Shown: in pieces, positions 17,167 through 44,511 of the stretch | Position numbering within the stretch: the stretch's first letter is position 1 | Layout: every line of letters starts with the position of its first letter | Origin: an uncultured Ruminococcus sp. | Lineage (GTDB): Bacteria; Bacillota; Clostridia; Oscillospirales; Ruminococcaceae | Length of the DNA stretch: 64,000 nt | Direction of reading: 5' to 3' | NCBI GenBank assembly: GCA_947174365.1 | Contig: CAMWIR010000001.1 | Location: 9,100-73,099 of the forward strand | Notes under the pieces: model-generated | Told to the model about the DNA's origin: nothing | The model's input: only the letters and a program-made list of their open reading frames with translations | The model's database searches: none | Program-made: the position numbers and the translations under genes

Positions 17167-17334
17167 TATACTTGCAACAAATTATTGATGCGGCCAACTA
17201 ATAGAACCTGACCGTGTTATGGCTTGCCGTGAATGTTACAATCTGTATAACTTCTTATTTGCAGTACATTTTGTATAAAAATCTGTACAAAATTTGTGCA
17301 AGTATACAAAATGTAAAAAGTTGCCTTACAGATA

Positions 17335-17363
17335 TTGACAAATCCGGAAAAATGAGTTATAAT
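17335..17363 (+). promoter_or_regulatory. Perfect-consensus sigmaA promoter of a candidate sRNA
   Basis: TTGACA aatccggaaaaatgagt TATAAT (17-nt spacer). Confidence 0.85.
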
Positions 17364-17368
17364 ATAAT

Positions 17369-17491
17369 TGATGTTAAGGTTCTTATATTCTATGTTAACA
17401 TCCGTTTTGTTGTCTCCTTTCTTTTGTTCTACACATAATGATTTTATGTGATTTGATTTTCTCGGCAGGGCTTAGTCCCTGCTATTTTTTT
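17369..17491 (+). ncRNA. Candidate ~120-nt trans-acting small RNA with anti-SD tract
   Basis: 5' stem GATGTTAA/TTAACATC, single-stranded GTCTCCTTTCTTTT, stem CACATAA/TTATGTG, terminator GCAGGG/CCCTGC plus T-run. No credible ORF. Confidence 0.65.
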
Positions 17492-25230: not shown

Positions 25231-25296
25231 ATTACGGAGTTTTGTTTGTGGTCTTGATGCTGCGTTGCTTTGTTTTGGGCTGTGACATAACGGCTC

Positions 25297-25331
25297 GGAG
25301 GTTAGAGGTTAGAGGTTAGATGTGAAAGGTG
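25297..25331. repeat. Heptamer tandem element (family A, copy 3, reverse orientation)
   Basis: GGAGGTT AGAGGTT AGAGGTT AGATGTG AAAGGTG. Confidence 0.75.
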
Positions 25332-25377
25332 TTACCTGCTCTTTGAGTTGTTAAAATGTAAAAATGCAGAAAAGTTA

Positions 25378-25420
25378 AATGCTCCCCTTTGGTCGGAATG
25401 TCCGTCAAAAGGGGAGCATT
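25378..25420. terminator. Hairpin between the convergent SDR and EAL genes
   Basis: AATGCTCCCCTTT...AAAGGGGAGCATT. Confidence 0.7.
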
Positions 25421-25442
25421 ATGTGTATGTTATACTGAGAAT

Positions 25443-27179
25443 TTATTCTTTTGTAAGCAGTGCGAAAAAATCGTCCTCGGGCATGGGCTTTGCATAATAA
25501 TATCCCTGTACCTGGTCGCAGCCGATATTCCTCAGAAGCTCCACCTGCTCCTTTGTTTCAACGCCCTCCGCAAGTACGGTTATGTCCAGATTTGCCGCCA
25601 TCTGAAGCACCTGCTCCAGTATACTGCGACCCTTGCTGGAGGTCATCATATTTTCAATGAAACGTTTGTCAAGCTTTATAACGTCAAAGGGGGATTCCAG
25701 CAGAACGTTCAGGGAGGAATATCCGCTTCCGAAATCGTCCATAAGCAGGGTAAATCCGCTTTCTTTCAGCAGGGCAGTCTGCCTGCTGATCTGAAGATCG
25801 TCTGCGGTCTCGGTTATTTCAAGCTCCAGCAGATGCCCGGGAATGCCGCATGAGCGTATCATTTCGGAAAGTATCCGGGTGCACCCGTCCTCTCGTAAAT
25901 GAACTCTCGAAACATTTACCGAAACAGGACACGGTCCGACCCCTGCGTCAATGCACCTGCGGATGAACATACACGCCCTGCGCCATATGTAATGATCGAC
26001 CTTTACGATCGCCCCGTTTTCCTCGATTATGGGTATGAACTGATTGGGATAGATTATTCCCCGTTCGGGGTGCACCCACCGCACAAGCGCCTCCGCTCCT
26101 ATGATCTCATTTTTGGAAATGCTGTATTTGGGCTGAAGATACATACAAAGCTGATTTTCGTCAATTGCTTTTTGAAGATTTTCCTCAATGAATTTCATGT
26201 TATACAGGGAATCCTTGAATTGATCCTTGTAGAAAACGATATTGGAGGAAAAGCCCAGCTTTGCGGTGCGCCTTGCCATGGCAGCCCTGTCCTCAATACG
26301 CCGCAGCTCCATGGTCTTGTCCTCTGCGATATACACGCCGTAGGAGATCTGGAGGGTAACATTCTTGTATTTGCATATACGGGCGTCAAGCTCGGTTATG
26401 AACCGCCTGGGGTAATCCTCGTCGGGAGCTTCCGTTACCACAATAAATACATCGCTGCGCAAATTCAGGTAATATTGCTTCTCGTTGCACTGCTCCTTTA
26501 ATCCCCGCACGATATGATCCAGCACTTCATTTCCGAACTTTTCGCCGTAAAGATCGTTGATGATCTTGAAGCGGCGTATATCAAACTGAATAAAAGCAAC
26601 CTTATCGGCAGTTTCCAGAAGCTCGGTAACATGGCGGCGGAATCTGTTGGAGCGCCCCATGCGCTTGACCATAGTCTGAAGCTCGTCGTTTTCCGGCAGA
26701 TACTCCGGGTCTATGGAAATATCCGCTTTGTAGTTTATGTATTCCGCAGTCATTTCCTCAAGGATCTCTATACTGGCTTCAAGGGCAGCGGGACATCTTT
26801 TGAGGATAAGCCCGTTCTGCCGTATTTCCGCCATTTGATCGGGAATGGATATGTCCTTCCCGAGAATGTCACGGCAGTTCACCTTGCCGTTCATTCTTTC
26901 GGAGAAACGCTTTATAAATTCCTCGGTTTTCTTGTTTCCGTAGACCTCCTGCTCGGTATCGCTGGCATTATAGAAGCCGAAGGTCATACCGAGAACGAGA
27001 AGTCCTGCCGTAATGCACCCGCAGGTATTTCCGCAGCGCATACCGCCTCCGAAACAGGTGCTTATTTTAAAAGCCGTTTTCAGATCAAGCCCGAGATCAT
27101 GGGCAAAAGCGCCGAAAAGAGCCTGTGTGCAGTGATATTTTTCATTCAGAAGCTTGATAGCATTTTCCTTATGAGTCAT
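25443..27179 (-). CDS. C-GCAxxG-C-C domain / degenerate GGDEF / EAL fusion protein
   Basis: N-terminal HCTQAL...FGGGMRCGNTCGCITAG...NCRDIL...RCP; GGDEF-like region with RSDVF; EAL motifs EALVRW, ELEITE, DDFGSGYSSL, AEGVET, QGYYY. Start set at MTHKENA. Confidence 0.88.
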   Translation of the reverse strand: MTHKENAIKLLNEKYHCTQALFGAFAHDLGLDLKTAFKISTCFGGGMRCGNTCGCITAGLLVLGMTFGFYNASDTEQEVYGNKKTEEFIKRFSERMNGKVNCRDILGKDISIPDQMAEIRQNGLILKRCPAALEASIEILEEMTAEYINYKADISIDPEYLPENDELQTMVKRMGRSNRFRRHVTELLETADKVAFIQFDIRRFKIINDLYGEKFGNEVLDHIVRGLKEQCNEKQYYLNLRSDVFIVVTEAPDEDYPRRFITELDARICKYKNVTLQISYGVYIAEDKTMELRRIEDRAAMARRTAKLGFSSNIVFYKDQFKDSLYNMKFIEENLQKAIDENQLCMYLQPKYSISKNEIIGAEALVRWVHPERGIIYPNQFIPIIEENGAIVKVDHYIWRRACMFIRRCIDAGVGPCPVSVNVSRVHLREDGCTRILSEMIRSCGIPGHLLELEITETADDLQISRQTALLKESGFTLLMDDFGSGYSSLNVLLESPFDVIKLDKRFIENMMTSSKGRSILEQVLQMAANLDITVLAEGVETKEQVELLRNIGCDQVQGYYYAKPMPEDDFFALLTKE

Positions 27180-27290
27180 AATAAACCTCCGCCGCAGTTG
27201 ATGGTTTTTACTAAAATCAATTGCTTTGTACAGTTTAATTTTATCACAAATGCTGCCCATTGTCAAGGGATAATAAAAAAGATTATGTAT

Positions 27291-27318
27291 AGAAGTTAGA
27301 GGTAAGAGGTTAGAAAGT
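27291..27318. repeat. Heptamer tandem element (family A, copy 4, reverse orientation)
   Basis: AGAAGTT AGAGGTA AGAGGTT AGAAAGT. Confidence 0.75.
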
Positions 27319-27325
27319 TTTTGGC

Positions 27326-27407
27326 GTCCTCTCATTTTCATTGAGAAATAGAATAAAGAAACAAGAGGCAAGATGTTGGTTTTCTTCATCTAGCCTTTTG
27401 CTTCTAA
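27326..27407. repeat. Family B element (copy 5); left copy of an ~80-bp imperfect direct repeat
   Basis: CTCATTTT...GAGAAA...CAAGAGGCAAGATG...TTCATCTAGCCTTTTGCTTCTAA, matching 28338..28420. Confidence 0.75.
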
Positions 27408-27413
27408 ATGTGA

Positions 27414-27515
27414 CTATTTCTTTTTCTTTTTATTTGCTTCGACCGTAAAAACGACCGCCAAACCAATTCCTAAGATTATCCACGGAAATGCCGCGTTAAA
27501 AAAATCCTGTATCAT
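27414..27515 (-). CDS. 33-aa single-TM small protein
   Basis: Manual translation MIQDFFNAAFPWIILGIGLAVVFTVEANKKKKK; RBS GAGGTG; directly downstream of the 144-aa membrane gene. Confidence 0.65.
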   Translation of the reverse strand: MIQDFFNAAFPWIILGIGLAVVFTVEANKKKKK

Positions 27516-27525
27516 GATTTTCACC

Positions 27526-27960
27526 TCACATTTTTCTTTTATAATATACATTAACAATGACCGTTGCCAATGCGCTGAAAAGCAGTACGGCAACTAAGGA
27601 AAAACAAATTTTTTCATTGAAAAAACCTGCCGCAACAGCAGCCATAGCAGTCCCCATCATTGATATAGCCGAACTCTTTTGCGATGTCTCCTTATTGATG
27701 GCAATGTTGCGCTCATCGGTTTCGTTTATGTACATTTCTTTTAATTTTTTCTCATTGCGCAGGGTGGCAAATGTTCTCGTAAGACTATATACTGCAAATG
27801 ATTCCATTCCGACAAAAACACCCATTGAAACTGCCTGCGCAATATCACTTGCACCATTTGTGAGAAATACGAGCATGAAATACAGTGCAAGACTGCACAG
27901 ACAAACCAAAGTATCAAGTTTAAAACGCCTTTCGACCTTTTTTCTGAAATTCTCCATCAT
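27526..27960 (-). CDS. Four-TM hypothetical membrane protein
   Basis: 144 aa, hydrophobic helices flanking LKEMYINETDERNIAI. Start overlaps the XRE stop (ATGA). Confidence 0.8.
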   Translation of the reverse strand: MMENFRKKVERRFKLDTLVCLCSLALYFMLVFLTNGASDIAQAVSMGVFVGMESFAVYSLTRTFATLRNEKKLKEMYINETDERNIAINKETSQKSSAISMMGTAMAAVAAGFFNEKICFSLVAVLLFSALATVIVNVYYKRKM

Positions 27961-28175
27961 GATCCTCCTTTAAAATTTTCTTCTCCCTCAAAAATGAACA
28001 GCTTCTCGATCGTCATACCAAAGAACTGCGCTGCCTTGTGCGCAAGGATAAGAGAAGCATTATATTTTCCGTTTTCCAATGAAATAATTGTTTGACGAGT
28101 AACACTCAGTGCATCGGCAAGCTCTTGCTGTGTGACCTTCCTTGCCTTGCGAAGTTCCTGAATTCTGTTTTGCAA
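27957..28175 (-). CDS. Small XRE-family HTH regulator
   Basis: MQNRIQELRKARKVTQQELADALSVTRQTIISLENGKYNASLILAHK. Confidence 0.93.
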   Translation of the reverse strand: MQNRIQELRKARKVTQQELADALSVTRQTIISLENGKYNASLILAHKAAQFFGMTIEKLFIFEGEENFKGGS

Positions 28176-28195
28176 TCATATCGCCCTCCTATGAG

Positions 28196-28258
28196 GTAAA
28201 GTTAACTTTACAATATTAGTATAGCACGCTTTACATTAAATGTCAAGTACTTTTTACA
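28196..28258 (-). promoter_or_regulatory. XRE operon promoter with probable operator sites
   Basis: Minus-strand TTGACA-17-TATACT; perfect palindrome GTAAAGTTAACTTTAC (28196..28211) plus two more TTTACA half-sites overlapping the promoter. Confidence 0.7.
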
Positions 28259-28337
28259 TTTTTAGTTTTTTTAACAAAACGATACCAACAAAAGAGTACC
28301 TGTCTGTACATTTCATATCATAAGACAGAAATGATAT

Positions 28338-28420
28338 GTCGCTCATTTTGAGAAAATTGAAATAACACAAAAAGCAAGAGGCAAGATGAACATACCATTC
28401 ATCTTGCCTCTTGCTTCTAA
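28338..28420. repeat. Family B element (copy 6); terminator-like, directly 3' of tRNA-Tyr
   Basis: Perfect 19-bp stem AAGCAAGAGGCAAGATGAA / TTCATCTTGCCTCTTGCTT. Confidence 0.8.
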
Positions 28421-28531: not shown

Positions 28532-28559
28532 ATTCTAACCTCTTACCTCTAACATCTAA
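28532..28559. repeat. Heptamer tandem element (family A, copy 5) in the tRNA spacer
   Basis: ATTCTAA CCTCTTA CCTCTAA CATCTAA. Confidence 0.75.
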
Positions 28560-38927: not shown

Positions 38928-41624
38928 CTATCTGTTTATGTACAGATCGGCTATGTCCTTTTTCCACTCGTCCGCTATGGCTGTGCAGGTATCTATATCG
39001 CAATCCTCGGCGGCGTTTTTGAGATTTGTGAAAAATTCCCCGAATACATTGTCGTATACAAAGCCGTTCATCTTTTCTATTACATCGTCTATCATAAGCG
39101 TGTCAAAATTCTCCAGCGCTTCTTTAAGCTCGTCAAGCATATCCATGATCTCCACAGGATCGGCAGCTCTGTGTATTTCCTTGACCTCCGAATCGGGGAA
39201 CACGGGGGAAAGTATACGCTTATAGTCTTTGTACATCTTCAGCATAGCTCCATGCTTTGCCTTGATAAACTCGGTGTTTTGTTCCTTGCCCGCTTTTTCC
39301 AGTTCAGCTGCCATAGTGGCAAGGTCGTCTGCGCCGATCTGGCGGGAAGTGCTTTTAAGAGAATGTACCTCAATGGTATACTCCGACCACAGCTCGTTTT
39401 TGAAATAATCCTCGATAACAGCCGACTTTTTCTCGATCGTCATATAGTATTCCTTGAGCACAGCCATATAGAGACTTTCGCTGCCAAGAAGATTTACGGC
39501 GCTCTCTATATTGAGACCCTCTATGCGCAAGGGAGCGTTCTCTTTATTTTCCTTTTCAGAGGCTTCCGCCTCGTCCTTATTAATTGGAATAAGCTTTTCA
39601 GACGGCAGCCATTTGCGCACCATGGAGATAATATCCTTGGCGTCCATTGGCTTTGGCAGGAAATCGTTCATACCTTCCCGCAGGAACATTTCCCTTGCTC
39701 CTCCTATGGCATTGGCGGTAAGGGCTATTATGGGGACGTTGGCATATTCGGGCATAAGACGGCGGATTATACGTGTAGTCTCCACGCCGTCCACCTCGGG
39801 CATCATATGATCCATAAATATGATGTCGTACATCATGCCCTTGACCTTTTCAATGGTTTCTCCTGCATTCATGGCTGTGTCCACCCGCATATTGAGCGGG
39901 GCGATAAGCCCTTTGGCTACGGTAAGGTTGACGGAGTTATCGTCAACTATGAGAATATTGGCGTCGGGGGCGGTAAAGGCAAAGTCCTCCTCGCTTTCCG
40001 TTTCCCCATGAGCATATTCGGGGATAAGCCCCATGGCTGCAAACAGGTTCAGGAAATACACGGGCTTTCGGATTATCCTTACATCCTCGGAGGTATCATC
40101 GTGGAAATTGCTGCCGAAATTATCTATGATAATGCACTTTACAGGCTCCTTGCCCGGGTTGAAGAATTTGCTTATTTTATCCGAATAAAGAGTGCGTTCC
40201 ACGATAAGATAATCGTGATATTCCGAGAGGCTGCTTGCCTCCTCCATATCGGTAGCGGCAATGCCTATTCTTTCAAGGTCAATCATTACCTGCTTTTTAA
40301 GGTAGCCGTTGTTGATAAGCACGGCTGTTCTGGGCAGGTTGTTCCTCCGGATATTCATTGCGGATTCGCTCACCAACTGCTGGGGGAGGACAAAGGAGAA
40401 GCAGCTGCCTTTATTGTATTCGCTTTCCACGCTGATATCGCCGTTCATAAGGGAAAGAAGCTGGCGGCATATGGCAAGCCCCAGACCCGTGCCCTCAATA
40501 TTGCGGTTTCGCTTGCTGTCCAGCTGCTGGAATGAGCGGAAAAGCTTGTTCAGATCCTCACGCTTTATGCCGCTGCCCGTGTCGGTAACGGAGACCTTCA
40601 TCATCACCGTATCTCCCCCGAAGGGCACGCACTCCATTTTAAGCACTACCTGTCCTTGCGTGGTGAATTTTACGGCATTGGTGAGCAGGTTCATGATTAT
40701 CTGCTGTATACGGACGTTATCCCCAAGAAGTCTGTGAGGCATATCGGGAGAAATATCCATAATGAATTCGATATTTTTTGAGCCGATACGGGTGCTGATT
40801 ATGCTGGCGATATCGTTGATAAGGCTCAGCGGCTCGTATGTAACGGGCGTTATTTCCATTTTTCCCGATTCTATTTTGGAGAAGTCGAGTATATCGTTGA
40901 TAATTACCAGCAGGCTTTTGGACGCCGATCTGATCTGGTGTATATATTCCCTTGCGGCAGGGGACATTTCCTCCCTCAGCGCCATTTCCGACATACCCAG
41001 AGCCGCATTCATGGGGGTGCGTATCTCGTGGCTCATATTGGCAAGAAAGTCGGATTTTGCACGGGCGATCTTTTCTATTTCAAGGTTGCTCAGATAGAGC
41101 ATATAGCTGTTATAGGCAATATTTGAGAGAATGGCTGCCATGGTGTAGAGGAATTTTGCCGAACGGTCTACGGTCTCCCTGTCGACTATGCGCACCTTGC
41201 AGGCTGCGTCGTAATACTCGCCTATATCTATCCCCAGATCCGATGCGATACGGGCAAACTTGGCAGGGTCGGGGGGATTTGTCAGCACCTGTCCGCCTAT
41301 AAAGCTGCCCACCATTCGCCCGTTGGCTATAATGGGGGCGGCAAAGTCCACCAGTCCTGCATGGCAGGTGTATACGCTGGCTGTGCCCTCGGTCATTGCC
41401 TGCTCTGCTCCCATTTTATCGCAGGCATTGCAGCGCTTGTTTCCTTTAACGGTGCATCGGGTATATTTCATGCAGAAGTCGGTAAAGTTCGAGCCTTTTG
41501 TTACGGCAACTCCGTCCTTATCGGTGGTCAGCGCTGCCATTCCCGTCATTTCGGAAAATGCGTCCTGCAATTGCTGGAGAATGTCAACGTTTATAAGATC
41601 GGTTAATTTGAGCTCAGCATTCAT
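38928..41624 (-). CDS. Cytoplasmic hybrid histidine kinase: PocR-HisKA-HATPase-REC-Hpt
   Basis: PocR domain (LQQLQDAFS..TG, FC...C..CD, YTCHAGLVDFAAPI), FLANMSHEIRTPMN, IFMDHMMP, Hpt VHSLKSTSRQIGA. No TM helix. Confidence 0.92.
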   Translation of the reverse strand: MNAELKLTDLINVDILQQLQDAFSEMTGMAALTTDKDGVAVTKGSNFTDFCMKYTRCTVKGNKRCNACDKMGAEQAMTEGTASVYTCHAGLVDFAAPIIANGRMVGSFIGGQVLTNPPDPAKFARIASDLGIDIGEYYDAACKVRIVDRETVDRSAKFLYTMAAILSNIAYNSYMLYLSNLEIEKIARAKSDFLANMSHEIRTPMNAALGMSEMALREEMSPAAREYIHQIRSASKSLLVIINDILDFSKIESGKMEITPVTYEPLSLINDIASIISTRIGSKNIEFIMDISPDMPHRLLGDNVRIQQIIMNLLTNAVKFTTQGQVVLKMECVPFGGDTVMMKVSVTDTGSGIKREDLNKLFRSFQQLDSKRNRNIEGTGLGLAICRQLLSLMNGDISVESEYNKGSCFSFVLPQQLVSESAMNIRRNNLPRTAVLINNGYLKKQVMIDLERIGIAATDMEEASSLSEYHDYLIVERTLYSDKISKFFNPGKEPVKCIIIDNFGSNFHDDTSEDVRIIRKPVYFLNLFAAMGLIPEYAHGETESEEDFAFTAPDANILIVDDNSVNLTVAKGLIAPLNMRVDTAMNAGETIEKVKGMMYDIIFMDHMMPEVDGVETTRIIRRLMPEYANVPIIALTANAIGGAREMFLREGMNDFLPKPMDAKDIISMVRKWLPSEKLIPINKDEAEASEKENKENAPLRIEGLNIESAVNLLGSESLYMAVLKEYYMTIEKKSAVIEDYFKNELWSEYTIEVHSLKSTSRQIGADDLATMAAELEKAGKEQNTEFIKAKHGAMLKMYKDYKRILSPVFPDSEVKEIHRAADPVEIMDMLDELKEALENFDTLMIDDVIEKMNGFVYDNVFGEFFTNLKNAAEDCDIDTCTAIADEWKKDIADLYINR

Positions 41625-41640
41625 ATATCCGTACTCCTTT

Positions 41641-41681
41641 AGAGGTTAGAAGTTAGAGGTAAGAGGTTAGATTTTATAACC
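41641..41681. repeat. Heptamer tandem element (family A, copy 7, reverse orientation)
   Basis: AGAGGTT AGAAGTT AGAGGTA AGAGGTT AGATTTT; abuts the RBS of the PocR kinase gene. Confidence 0.8.
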
Positions 41682-41774
41682 GCCTGTAACTTATCCTCTT
41701 TAAATAATTTTTATGCCTTGTTTTGTGCATATATACAAATATTTCAAACATCATAACATTTTTGCATAAAGCTA

Positions 41775-41803
41775 TTGACAAGCAAATCAAAATCTGTTAT
41801 AAT
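41775..41803 (+). promoter_or_regulatory. Perfect-consensus sigmaA promoter with no plus-strand ORF, facing the polA 3' end
   Basis: TTGACA agcaaatcaaaatctgt TATAAT. Confidence 0.75.
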
Positions 41804-41903
41804 ATTATTATAGCGAAACACATTTTTGCCTAACGCCCAAGCTCATCACATTGTCTCACTCAAACAGTCAATCAAAATAAAGCAAATCCCGTCCCATCAC
41901 TCT

Positions 41904-41937
41904 CTTCTAACCTCTTACCTCTAACATCTAACCTCTG
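41904..41937. repeat. Heptamer tandem element (family A, copy 8)
   Basis: TCTAACCTCTTACCTCTAACATCTAACCTCT, directly after the polA stop codon. Confidence 0.8.
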
Positions 41938-44511
41938 TCAATGGCATTCGTACCAGCTTTTGCCTGTTTCCACGTCGGCGGCTAAGGGGACGGCGATATT
42001 CGCTGCGGAGCGCATTTCCTCGCCCAGTATTTTTACCGCTGCCGCCGAGTCTTTTTCGGGGACTTCTATGATAAGCTCGTCATGGATCTGTAAAATGAGC
42101 TTTGCGCTTGGCAGCTCCTTTTCAAGTCGGCGGTAGACCTTTACCATAGCCATTTTAATAATGTCTGCGGCTGTGCCCTGGACGGGGGCGTTCATGGCGG
42201 CACGCTGACCGAACGCCTGCAAATTTTTGTTTTTGGCGGCAAGCTCGGGGATATACCGCCGTCTGCCGAACATGGTGCAGCTCCAGCCTTTTTCAGTGGC
42301 GTCCTCAACGGACTTTTCCATAAACTCCTTTACGCCTCTGAAATTGGTGAGGTAGCCGTTTATATACTGCTTTGCCTGCGCCACGGTAACGTCTATATCC
42401 TTAGAGAGAGAAAAGGGACTTATTCCGTAGACTATGCCGAAATTTACCGCCTTGGCAGCCCGCCGCATTTCGGGGGTCACCATATCGGGGGGCAGTCCGA
42501 AAACCTGTGCGGCTGTGGTGGTATGGATATCGCCGCCACTGTTAAAGACTTCCTGCATATTTTTATCGCCGCTGAGGTGGGCGAGGATACGAAGCTCGAT
42601 CTGGCTGTAGTCGGCGTCTGCGAACACCTTGCCCTCGCCGCTTACAAAGAACCGCCGCATATTCCGTCCAAGCTCGGTGCGCACAGGAATATTCTGCAAA
42701 TTCGGCTCGGTGGAGGATATACGCCCTGTGCGGGTCTCGGTCTGCTTATAAACGGTATGGATACGGCCGTCGGGGGAAACGGCTTTAAGAAGCCCCTCCA
42801 CATAGGTGGACTGGAGCTTTGTATACTGCCTGTAGGTGAGCACCATATCTATTATGGGGTCTTTGTCACGAAGCTCTTCGAGAACCTCCGCTCCCGTGGA
42901 ATAGCCTGTTTTGGTTTTTGTCTTTTTGCCGTGGGGCAGCCCCATTTCCTCAAAAAGAACAACGCCCAGCTGTTTGGGAGAGGATATGTTGAACTTATGA
43001 CCTGCACGGAAATATATCTGCTCCTCCAGTCCCTCTATCTCGCCCAAGAGGCTGTTGCCGAATTCTCTTATGCCGTCGGTATCGGGCTTTACGCCGATAT
43101 ATTCCATGGAAGCAAGAACTTCCGTTAGGGGCAGCTCGGTCTCATGATATAATTTGCCCATGCCAAGGCGCTCCACCGCGCTGTCAAGGCGCTCGCAAAG
43201 TCCCGACAGTGCGGCTATATCGCTGTATTCCCCTAAATCTTCATAGACAGGGCAGTTATATTCCGCAGAGAGCATACTTATTCTGTATTCGGCAGCGGAA
43301 GCGTTCAGGAGATAGCCTGCAATATCGGCGTCGCTTATAATGCTGCGGAGCTTTTTGCCCTGCTCAAAGCAATATCTGTAGGCGGGCTTGGCGGCAAAGG
43401 TCACCTTTTCGCATTCGCTTGAAAGGAGATTTAAAATATCCTCGTTGCTGTCGAATTTACAAAGCTTTTCGTCCTGTGCGACATAAAGAGAATTTGCAAG
43501 CAGACCGTCCCCGGGGGTAAAGATAAAGGCAAATTTACGGGCGCTGCGGGTAATGTCCGCCGCTGTCATTTGTTCGATCTTATAGGGGATAGGCTTCATT
43601 TCGGGCAATGCTTCGCTGACGTCCGCAGACTTAGCAGCCTTTGGAAAAAGGCTCAGTTTATCTAAGAGTCTTGTCATTTCAAGCTCCGTTAGAATCTCCG
43701 AAAGCTTTTCCTTGTCGCATTCCGCTGTTTTGTATTGGTTTATATCCCGGTCTATCGGAGCGTTTGTTACGATAGTTGCAAGCCATTTGCTTTCCTTGGC
43801 GGAGTCTGCACCGTCCTCCAGCTTGGCTATGACGGATTTTGTGGCGGTGACCTGCCCTTTGGAGAGCTTTTCGTAAAGCTCTTCTATGGAGGAATATTCC
43901 TTGATAAGACTCATGGCTGTTTTTTCGCCAATGCCTTTAACGCCGCTGATATTGTCGGAGCTGTCGCCCATAAGTCCTTTAAGGTCAATTATCTGTTTTG
44001 GAGAGAGTCCCTGATACATTTCGGCAAATTTCTCGGGAGTGCAGCGGATAAGCTCCTTTGTGCCGTGGAGAAGTACGGTGACGTTATCGGTTATAAGCTG
44101 TAAGCTGTCTCTGTCGCCTGTGAGGATAAAGCATTCATCCCCTGCCTCTTTTTTGCACAAGGAAGCAAGGGTGCCTAAAATATCGTCCGCCTCAAAGCCG
44201 GGGCATTCAAGTACCTTTATGTCCATAGCTTTCAGAATGTCTTTTATAAGGGGCATTTGCATTGCAAGCTCATCGGGCATACCGTGGCGGTTTGCTTTAT
44301 AGCTGACGTTTGCTTTATGCCTGAATGTAGGTTCACGCAGGTCAAAGGCAACCGCAACTCCCTCGGGAGAAATTTCCGAGGATATTTTCATATAGATATT
44401 CATAAAGCCCGTAATGGCGTTGGTGAACACGCCTTTTTTATTGGACAGGGCTTTTATTCCGTAAAAGGCTCGGTTCATTATGCTGTTGCCGTCGATCGCA
44501 AGCAGTTTCAT
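41938..44511 (-). CDS. polA: DNA polymerase I
   Basis: 5' nuclease LLAIDGNS, EADDILGT, GDSSDNISGVKGIG; polymerase motifs DYSQIELR, RRAAKAVNFGIVYG, QIHDEL. Confidence 0.98.
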   Translation of the reverse strand: MKLLAIDGNSIMNRAFYGIKALSNKKGVFTNAITGFMNIYMKISSEISPEGVAVAFDLREPTFRHKANVSYKANRHGMPDELAMQMPLIKDILKAMDIKVLECPGFEADDILGTLASLCKKEAGDECFILTGDRDSLQLITDNVTVLLHGTKELIRCTPEKFAEMYQGLSPKQIIDLKGLMGDSSDNISGVKGIGEKTAMSLIKEYSSIEELYEKLSKGQVTATKSVIAKLEDGADSAKESKWLATIVTNAPIDRDINQYKTAECDKEKLSEILTELEMTRLLDKLSLFPKAAKSADVSEALPEMKPIPYKIEQMTAADITRSARKFAFIFTPGDGLLANSLYVAQDEKLCKFDSNEDILNLLSSECEKVTFAAKPAYRYCFEQGKKLRSIISDADIAGYLLNASAAEYRISMLSAEYNCPVYEDLGEYSDIAALSGLCERLDSAVERLGMGKLYHETELPLTEVLASMEYIGVKPDTDGIREFGNSLLGEIEGLEEQIYFRAGHKFNISSPKQLGVVLFEEMGLPHGKKTKTKTGYSTGAEVLEELRDKDPIIDMVLTYRQYTKLQSTYVEGLLKAVSPDGRIHTVYKQTETRTGRISSTEPNLQNIPVRTELGRNMRRFFVSGEGKVFADADYSQIELRILAHLSGDKNMQEVFNSGGDIHTTTAAQVFGLPPDMVTPEMRRAAKAVNFGIVYGISPFSLSKDIDVTVAQAKQYINGYLTNFRGVKEFMEKSVEDATEKGWSCTMFGRRRYIPELAAKNKNLQAFGQRAAMNAPVQGTAADIIKMAMVKVYRRLEKELPSAKLILQIHDELIIEVPEKDSAAAVKILGEEMRSAANIAVPLAADVETGKSWYECH

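Follow-up and report, generated by a model that had tools for sequence, protein, structure and literature searches.

Tandem heptamer arrays at gene boundaries frame a putative polA-directed promoter in the spacer between polA and a PocR-sensor kinase gene of an uncultured Ruminococcus

Invertible promoters are exemplified by fimS of Escherichia coli, the capsule promoters of Bacteroides fragilis and the cwpV and flgB switches of Clostridioides difficile. Inverted pairs are also found, in some cases, among the REP and BIME elements of enterobacteria, short dispersed repeats located mostly 3' of genes in or between operons, and the individual REPs are palindromic and linked to RAYT (Y1) transposases. 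Heptamers repeated in tandem have been described as well. The TAACTGA direct repeats are intergenic elements of marine Beggiatoaceae, Cyanobacteria and Bacteroidetes (MacGregor 2015, PMC4679880), forming arrays of 2-6 copies that mostly adjoin start codons, have unrelated neighbour genes and no known function (PMC4679880). Cyanobacteria carry the STRR, and units of 7 nt are also on record for long simple sequence repeats (Mrazek 2007, as summarised in PMC4679880), whilst the four-heptanucleotide elements of Geobacter metallireducens are GC-rich and occur within genes too (PMC2700814).

The window, that is, the whole stretch of DNA that was analysed, comprises 64,000 nucleotides from an uncultured Ruminococcus sp. 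(GenBank assembly GCA_947174365.1, contig CAMWIR010000001.1). An earlier note had picked out in it a segment of about 300 bp, located between polA and a kinase gene and having inverted repeats at its ends and a promoter inside, for which three readings were offered: a MITE-like unit, an invertible promoter, or a source of antisense or small RNA. The features of this region, in which the genes are longest-ORF calls, are the following.

38928..41624, minus strand: gene of a PocR-sensor hybrid histidine kinase (PocR, HisKA, HATPase_c, REC and Hpt domains), from Pfam and ORF call
41634..41639, minus strand: Shine-Dalgarno AAGGAG of the kinase, 9 nt 5' of the ATG and abutting the left array, read from the sequence
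41639..41671, AGAGG strand plus: left arm, a start-proximal array of 4.7 heptamers (unit TTAGAGG), whose 5' end touches the opposite-strand kinase Shine-Dalgarno
41699..41815, plus strand: copy of a promoter module, one of about 35 dispersed copies
41775..41803, plus strand: TTGACA-17-TATAAT promoter of sigma-A type, 12/12 match, with an extended -10 TG
41816..41905, plus strand: poorly conserved spacer, 40% identical to that of the relative G014, G-poor as judged by eye and not by a count of composition, expected to make up the 5' part of the putative antisense transcript
41906..41936, AGAGG strand minus: right arm, a stop-proximal array of 4.4 heptamers on the polA sense strand
41938..44511, minus strand: polA, the gene of DNA polymerase I, from Pfam and ORF call

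The observations from which those readings had been drawn could be reproduced. The arms at 41641-41671 and 41906-41936 (31 nt each, 234 nt apart) are 97% complementary, in accordance with the 30 of 31 matching positions claimed before, and the promoter at 41775-41803, on the plus strand, agrees with the consensus at all 12 hexamer positions and is indeed aimed at the 3' end of polA, with a predicted start near 41810. The statement that neither an ORF nor a terminator follows it on the plus strand also holds: no ORF of at least 40 aa starts downstream of the promoter within the segment, and no terminator-like site is present in 41440-42600. The kinase gene had been placed close to the left of the segment, and its ATG (41624-41622 on the minus strand) is separated from the left arm by 16 nt; the polA stop codon (41940-41938) is 1 nt away from the right arm. 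A target-site duplication is missing, as reported, and the two flanks are the ribosome-binding site of the kinase and the stop codon of polA. The earlier description did not take into account the tandem heptamer nature of the arms and the genome-wide family to which they belong. The 296-bp "unit" is the entire spacer of two co-directional genes, at either end of which stands an independent copy of a gene-boundary repeat dispersed in the genome.

In both arms TRF recognised tandem repetition with a period of 7 (4.4-4.7 copies), the unit being formed by a core AGAGG and two variable bases. The array pattern matches 14 times in the window and 0 times in shuffled windows, and the arm-type array occurs eight times within the window. 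The genome searched (G000) comprises 3.0 Mb in 223 contigs and is 99.7% complete. A strict search with AGAGGTT yielded about 55 copies in it, and a search for the core only, defined as at least three units of AGAGG plus two free bases, yielded at least 72 arrays as compared with 1 in the reversed-genome control. The dominant period-7 units found by TRF in the genome are AAGAGGC (47), AACCTCT (29) and AAGAAGC (25). Nearly all arrays are intergenic and solo, and the AGAGG strand of the array is devoid of C and not self-complementary. Within 80 nt on their 3' side, 12 of the 72 arrays are accompanied by a partial inverted copy (7 nt or longer), versus 2 of the 72 on the 5' side. The AGAGGCA-type arrays at window 28376-28420 and 27356-27400 form perfect short-loop hairpins, which on the minus strand resemble intrinsic terminators after tRNA-Tyr.

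Several origins and functions known for other repeats were discarded for this family. A REP/RAYT origin was rejected because the Y1 transposase (PF01797) is absent from the genome and the unit is not palindromic. For a telomerase-like or retroelement origin a reverse transcriptase was sought, and none was present in G000 or, more widely, in four of the five array-rich genomes, the remaining one (G014) having one match. Binding of a HutP-type protein to UAG-N4 repeats was dismissed, the HutP gene being absent, and a regulon of array-bearing genes was rejected since the 15 checked genes behind start-proximal arrays, which include a gyrB/parE-like gene, pfk, fmt and genes for a GH26 mannanase, an NFACT protein and a flagellar rod protein, are functionally unrelated.

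The disposition of the arrays with respect to genes follows a rule of polarity. Read on the AGAGG strand, the 5' end of the array lies against a gene and the 3' end is directed towards variable intergenic DNA. A called gene is found within 26 nt of the 5' end in 41/61 arrays and of the 3' end in 9/61 (sign test, 7e-8), the median distances to a gene being 17 nt and 73 nt, respectively. Two contexts can be distinguished. In one of them the array is on the sense strand directly 3' of a stop codon, which it often supplies itself, and the same disposition is seen after tRNA 3' ends, for example at window 28534-28559 after tRNA-Pro. In the other the array is on the opposite strand, and the mRNA reads (CCUCUAA)n, AAGGAG, 7-10 nt and ATG; the Shine-Dalgarno placed against the array, as at the kinase, recurs at other start-proximal arrays. 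polA carries the stop-proximal kind and the PocR kinase gene the start-proximal kind. Since the arrays point away from the gene that they touch, two of them bounding a single spacer constitute an inverted repeat, and the inverted repeat of the polA-kinase spacer is thus a consequence of array polarity. From 61 arrays and about 2,670 spacers approximately 0.7 double-array spacers are expected by chance and one was observed among opposite-strand pairs. Only three convergent and three divergent opposite-strand pairs are no more than 3 kb apart in the genome; that of polA and the kinase is the closest, and the only one closer than 1.2 kb. The other convergent pairs bracket the genes def and flhB.

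G000 C133:4782-5527: def bracketed by convergent arrays, in the order priA, array, def, array, fmt
G000 C8:30239-31621: flhB bracketed by convergent arrays, in the order fliR, array, flhB, array

These two pairs are plainly neither mobile nor invertible, and the genes enclosed by them are ordinary operon members.

Among 30 genomes of the genus, the polA-spacer-kinase arrangement with this promoter was found in four (G000, G011, G008 and G014), in which arms and promoter are identically oriented; three further independent assemblies agree, to make seven, and the related genomes compared are not independent of one another. The -35 and -10 hexamers are invariant across the four species, which constitute one clade. 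The left arm is 100% identical in G011 and 94% identical in G014, which is the most divergent of the four and in which the identities amount to 94% for the arms, 68% for the promoter module, 37-40% for the remaining spacer and 78-79% for the coding flanks. In both G011 and G014 the polA stop codon is the first TAA or TAG of the array. Relatives with 79-80% identical kinase proteins also have polA followed by the kinase gene, separated by promoter-free spacers of 155 and 81 nt. In the P0004-type relative the stop-proximal array is (AGAGGAT)n and the start-proximal one is made of another unit type; the P0003-type relative has a single short array, stop-proximal. Boundary arrays are therefore kept without the promoter-bearing interior, and hence they are independent of it. 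More distant members of the genus have another gene after polA, sometimes with a degenerate array behind the stop; their 64%-identical kinase is encoded elsewhere, array-free and preceded at about 75 nt by a co-oriented TTGACA promoter of its own. In orthologous spacers elsewhere the arrays persist and the unit type differs between species. Only G000, G008, G011, G014 and G015 are rich in exact three-unit arrays, which are rare in three and absent from 22 of the 30 genomes.

Beyond the genus, the 20-mer array core is also present in MAGs of Prevotella, Bacteroidales, Nitrospirae, Phycisphaerae and Gaiellales, often as hairpin pairs. Of 112 matches to this core 13 are inside long ORFs of up to 4.1 kb (e.g. 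L099, L101, L104, L040 and L075), where the arrays are stop-free in frame and would be translated to a 7-residue peptide repeat (Prevotella and other MAGs). Two metagenome scans, one with the kinase-side junction and one with a conserved interior word, retrieved no further copies, and exact look-ups with the kinase and polA of the window gave no match. Length differences between arrays were also noticed within the window. At the site orthologous to window 25234-28376, G014 is devoid of the approximately 3.1 kb between the arrays, including a 648-aa ORF at 25443-27389, and has a single array at the junction; in G008 about 960 nt (approximately 27406-28368) are missing from the interval that the convergent arrays at 27291 and 28537 delimit. 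These differences indicate that arrays bound variable segments.

Perfect TTGACA-N17-TATAAT sites amount to 200 in the genome against 0.6 expected from its composition; 113 of them have the extended -10 TG, 136 are intergenic and face a gene, and 21 are intergenic and convergent. With such an excess there is hardly any doubt, judging from its sequence, that the spacer promoter is real, and a perfect match to the consensus is unexceptional here. The promoters of this organism are unusually near consensus in general. The one in the spacer forms part of a dispersed module of about 115 nt with approximately 35 members, composed of an upstream TTTGTGCA...ACAAA motif, the element TTGCATAAAGCTA abutting the -35, and then the -10. 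The upstream motif sits about 40 nt before TTGCATAAAGCTA and corresponds in the polA-kinase spacer to 41721-41740. The majority of members are aimed at a co-oriented gene; in a few cases, that of the spacer copy among them, the target is the end of a convergent one. The module has the look of a site for a shared regulator, or of a promoter that was propagated. Copies were located at window 41699-41815 and 17290-17370 and on contigs C44, C129, C2, C32 and C17 of G000, among others. The promoter of a candidate small-RNA gene at 17335-17491 is of this type as well, with the upstream motif at a spacing one helical turn shorter. The module family has a second orphan promoter at G000 C32:18025-18230, again directed at a convergent gene, behind whose stop codon come an array and a terminator; the transcript predicted for this promoter, about 80 nt long, is C-rich, ends in a shared hairpin and represents a candidate small RNA.

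We propose that gene-boundary arrays frame a polA-directed promoter, that the kinase is expressed from polA read-through and damped by antisense transcription, and that the segment is neither mobile nor invertible, an account to which, on sequence evidence, we assign a slightly better than even chance. According to this proposal the kinase would be produced from polA read-through RNA, because no terminator-like site was found between polA and the kinase gene and because promoter-free relatives exist; in those relatives, whose spacer has no promoter, transcription of the kinase gene would have to come from polA. The idea that the kinase has a minus-strand promoter of its own within the spacer was discarded, inspection having revealed only weak and non-conserved candidates. 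The spacer promoter would fire against the read-through, giving, from about 41810, a non-coding RNA that runs antisense to the polA 3' end and carries the CCUCU form of the array, and convergent transcription together with the formation of an RNA duplex would damp the read-through into the kinase. The next plus-strand terminator-like sites are at 43636 and 44361-44471, none being present for at least 1.8 kb from the antisense start. In the read-through RNA the two arrays would zip into a 31-bp stem with the kinase ribosome-binding site at its foot, and the minus-strand RNA is predicted to fold with the arms paired at -99 kcal/mol (z -6.3). The antisense stretch 41809-42010, which includes spacer, right arm and the first 74 nt antisense to polA, shows no excess folding (z-score +0.77). 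No Rfam match was obtained in the segment, and with these two results a structured small RNA was rejected. The Rho RNA-binding domain (PF07497) was not found in the 99.7%-complete genome, and Rho-dependent termination of the G-poor antisense RNA was discarded on that account. RNase III is encoded at G000 C186:350-739. With regard to what is expected of a cis-antisense or small RNA, the promoter is present, a terminator is not, and the body of the transcript is not conserved in G014. We consider that the promoter probably makes antisense RNA against polA read-through. Among the three readings offered before, the source of antisense or non-coding RNA is the one that stays plausible, with a promoter conserved as the other spacer DNA decays; the MITE and the invertible promoter find no support.

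The possibility that the promoter was brought into the spacer by a non-autonomous, MITE-like transposon whose terminal inverted repeats measure 31 bp draws on a small, non-coding segment limited by 31-nt arms that match at 30 of 31 positions. However, the 234-bp interior has no second copy in the genome, in which only the arms and, weakly, the promoter module recur; a target duplication is absent, most arms are solo, no Y1 transposase was found in the genome, and relatives without the interior still have arrays at the polA stop or the kinase start. This reading finds no support in the data, is largely refuted and retains hardly any probability. In the reading as an invertible promoter, a recombinase would flip the 234-bp interior, the flipped promoter would drive the kinase and all the assemblies would show the OFF state. 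The geometry of the spacer fits that of known invertons: 31-bp inverted repeats limit about 300 bp with a strong promoter, and the target ribosome-binding site is directly past one of them. Kinase homologues in other members of the genus have a co-oriented TTGACA promoter, with which an inverted promoter beside the kinase would be the expected look of a switch in its OFF state, and the recombinases found in the genome number 4 of the serine and 13 of the tyrosine type, one of them 201 aa long. Nevertheless, the inverted orientation, which the earlier note had advised to seek in strain assemblies, did not appear, seven assemblies from four species presenting a single one, and the genome-wide search for a candidate invertase found recombinases only on contigs other than that of the locus, whose 78 kb contain no recombinase match. 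There are no arrays beside the small 201-aa serine recombinase, the supposed inverted repeat is present at least 72 times, nearly always solo and also flanking essential operon genes, and relatives do without a spacer promoter. Kinase expression from polA read-through is what the earlier note itself had set against a switch, and the relatives in which polA and the kinase gene are adjacent and promoter-free match it. An invertible promoter is thus not supported and we regard it as very improbable; on the evidence of the assemblies, the segment appears to be neither mobile nor invertible.

The pairing of the arms could itself be the selected property, with a 31-bp helix in the polA-kinase co-transcript acting as a stalk for processing, comparable to the RNase III stems on either side of rRNA, or as a translational lock, and separating or silencing the kinase cistron by occlusion of the stretch immediately upstream of its Shine-Dalgarno. 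In the predicted fold the 31-bp stem is the dominant element (z -6.3), the helix is kept in four species, the arms are more conserved than the coding flanks and RNase III is encoded in the genome; in G008 one T-to-C unit variant is found in the two arms alike, four paired changes that hint at an interaction between them. The C variant is, however, common among the arrays of G008 in general, which weakens these changes as proof of an RNA helix. Moreover, arrays are conserved throughout the genome with or without a partner, those of the P0004-type relative differ in unit type and pair poorly, the P0003-type has one array only, and the arrays at def and flhB, if paired, would leave an entire gene in the loop. 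We consider a selected helix, either as a stalk or as a lock on the kinase, unlikely. Another explanation is that the promoter drives a trans-acting small RNA, whose CCUCU array pairs with the AGAGG arrays in the 3' UTRs or tRNA trailers of about 28 other genes. The predicted transcript is unstructured, promoter and array are the only parts of it conserved in G014, and the promoter type, including the TTTGTGCA...ACAAA motif, is shared with the candidate small-RNA gene at 17335-17491. Against this stand the lack of a terminator and of an Rfam match, the absence of conservation downstream of the promoter in G014, and a pairing energy of the CU tract with ribosome-binding regions (-9.1 kcal/mol) no better than that with random sequence (-8.1 kcal/mol), for which reason a sponge of anti-Shine-Dalgarno type was also rejected; such a small RNA is highly doubtful. 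A link to the nearby pyrimidine-tract small RNA was discarded too, the array pairing being only marginally above random sequence. In its widest form, the arrays would be a cross-phylum "punctuation" of UTRs, and a CCUCU anti-array RNA would pair in trans with arrays after about 28 stop codons or tRNA ends, joining unrelated genes in one post-transcriptional network with the polA-kinase locus as sender and receiver in cis; to this we concede very little likelihood.

Returning to the antisense account, a conserved strong promoter placed head-on into polA read-through, in a genome where no Rho was detected, may represent a regulated insulator for a sensor kinase, for which the sequence makes it a candidate. 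An apparent phase switch or MITE is explained here by the rule of a repeat family, and this calls for caution on inverton calls made from inverted repeat plus promoter geometry alone in repeat-rich gut genomes. The heptamer family, which keeps strictly to its polarity at the stop codons, tRNA ends and ribosome-binding sites that it marks and is conserved above coding DNA, is a more interesting object than the polA-kinase locus alone, and the AGAGG arrays provide a tractable case of the old puzzle of heptanucleotide repeats.

As regards the systems mentioned at the beginning, the spacer shares with invertons a promoter segment of a few hundred bp between inverted repeats and beside a regulated gene, but a second orientation was not seen in seven assemblies, no dedicated recombinase is nearby and the repeat is mostly solo genome-wide. 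Like REP and BIME elements, the AGAGG arrays are short, dispersed, intergenic and sometimes found as inverted pairs; unlike them, they are not palindromic and the genome has no Y1 transposase. A full-text literature search for the array sequence returned only unrelated primers and no description of the unit, and AGAGGNN is neither the TAACTGA nor the STRR unit. With the STRR and the Geobacter elements the arrays have in common the dispersal of tandem heptanucleotides, about four units long and in tens of copies per genome, although for those elements, as summarised or described in the sources cited above, no polarity rule or hugging of stop and start codons is reported. The likeness to the TAACTGA repeats comprises short arrays of one heptamer at many intergenic sites, functionally unrelated neighbours and a patchy spread across phyla; the differences are the unit AGAGGNN itself, the two fixed positions on opposite strands (after the stop codon and before the Shine-Dalgarno), and the retention of a canonical Shine-Dalgarno rather than its replacement by the repeat. 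The TAACTGA repeats of Beggiatoaceae are the closest match among known heptamer repeats, and the AGAGG arrays fall within the class, itself loosely defined, of dispersed intergenic tandem heptanucleotide repeats, in which their unit and their two-position polarity set them apart.
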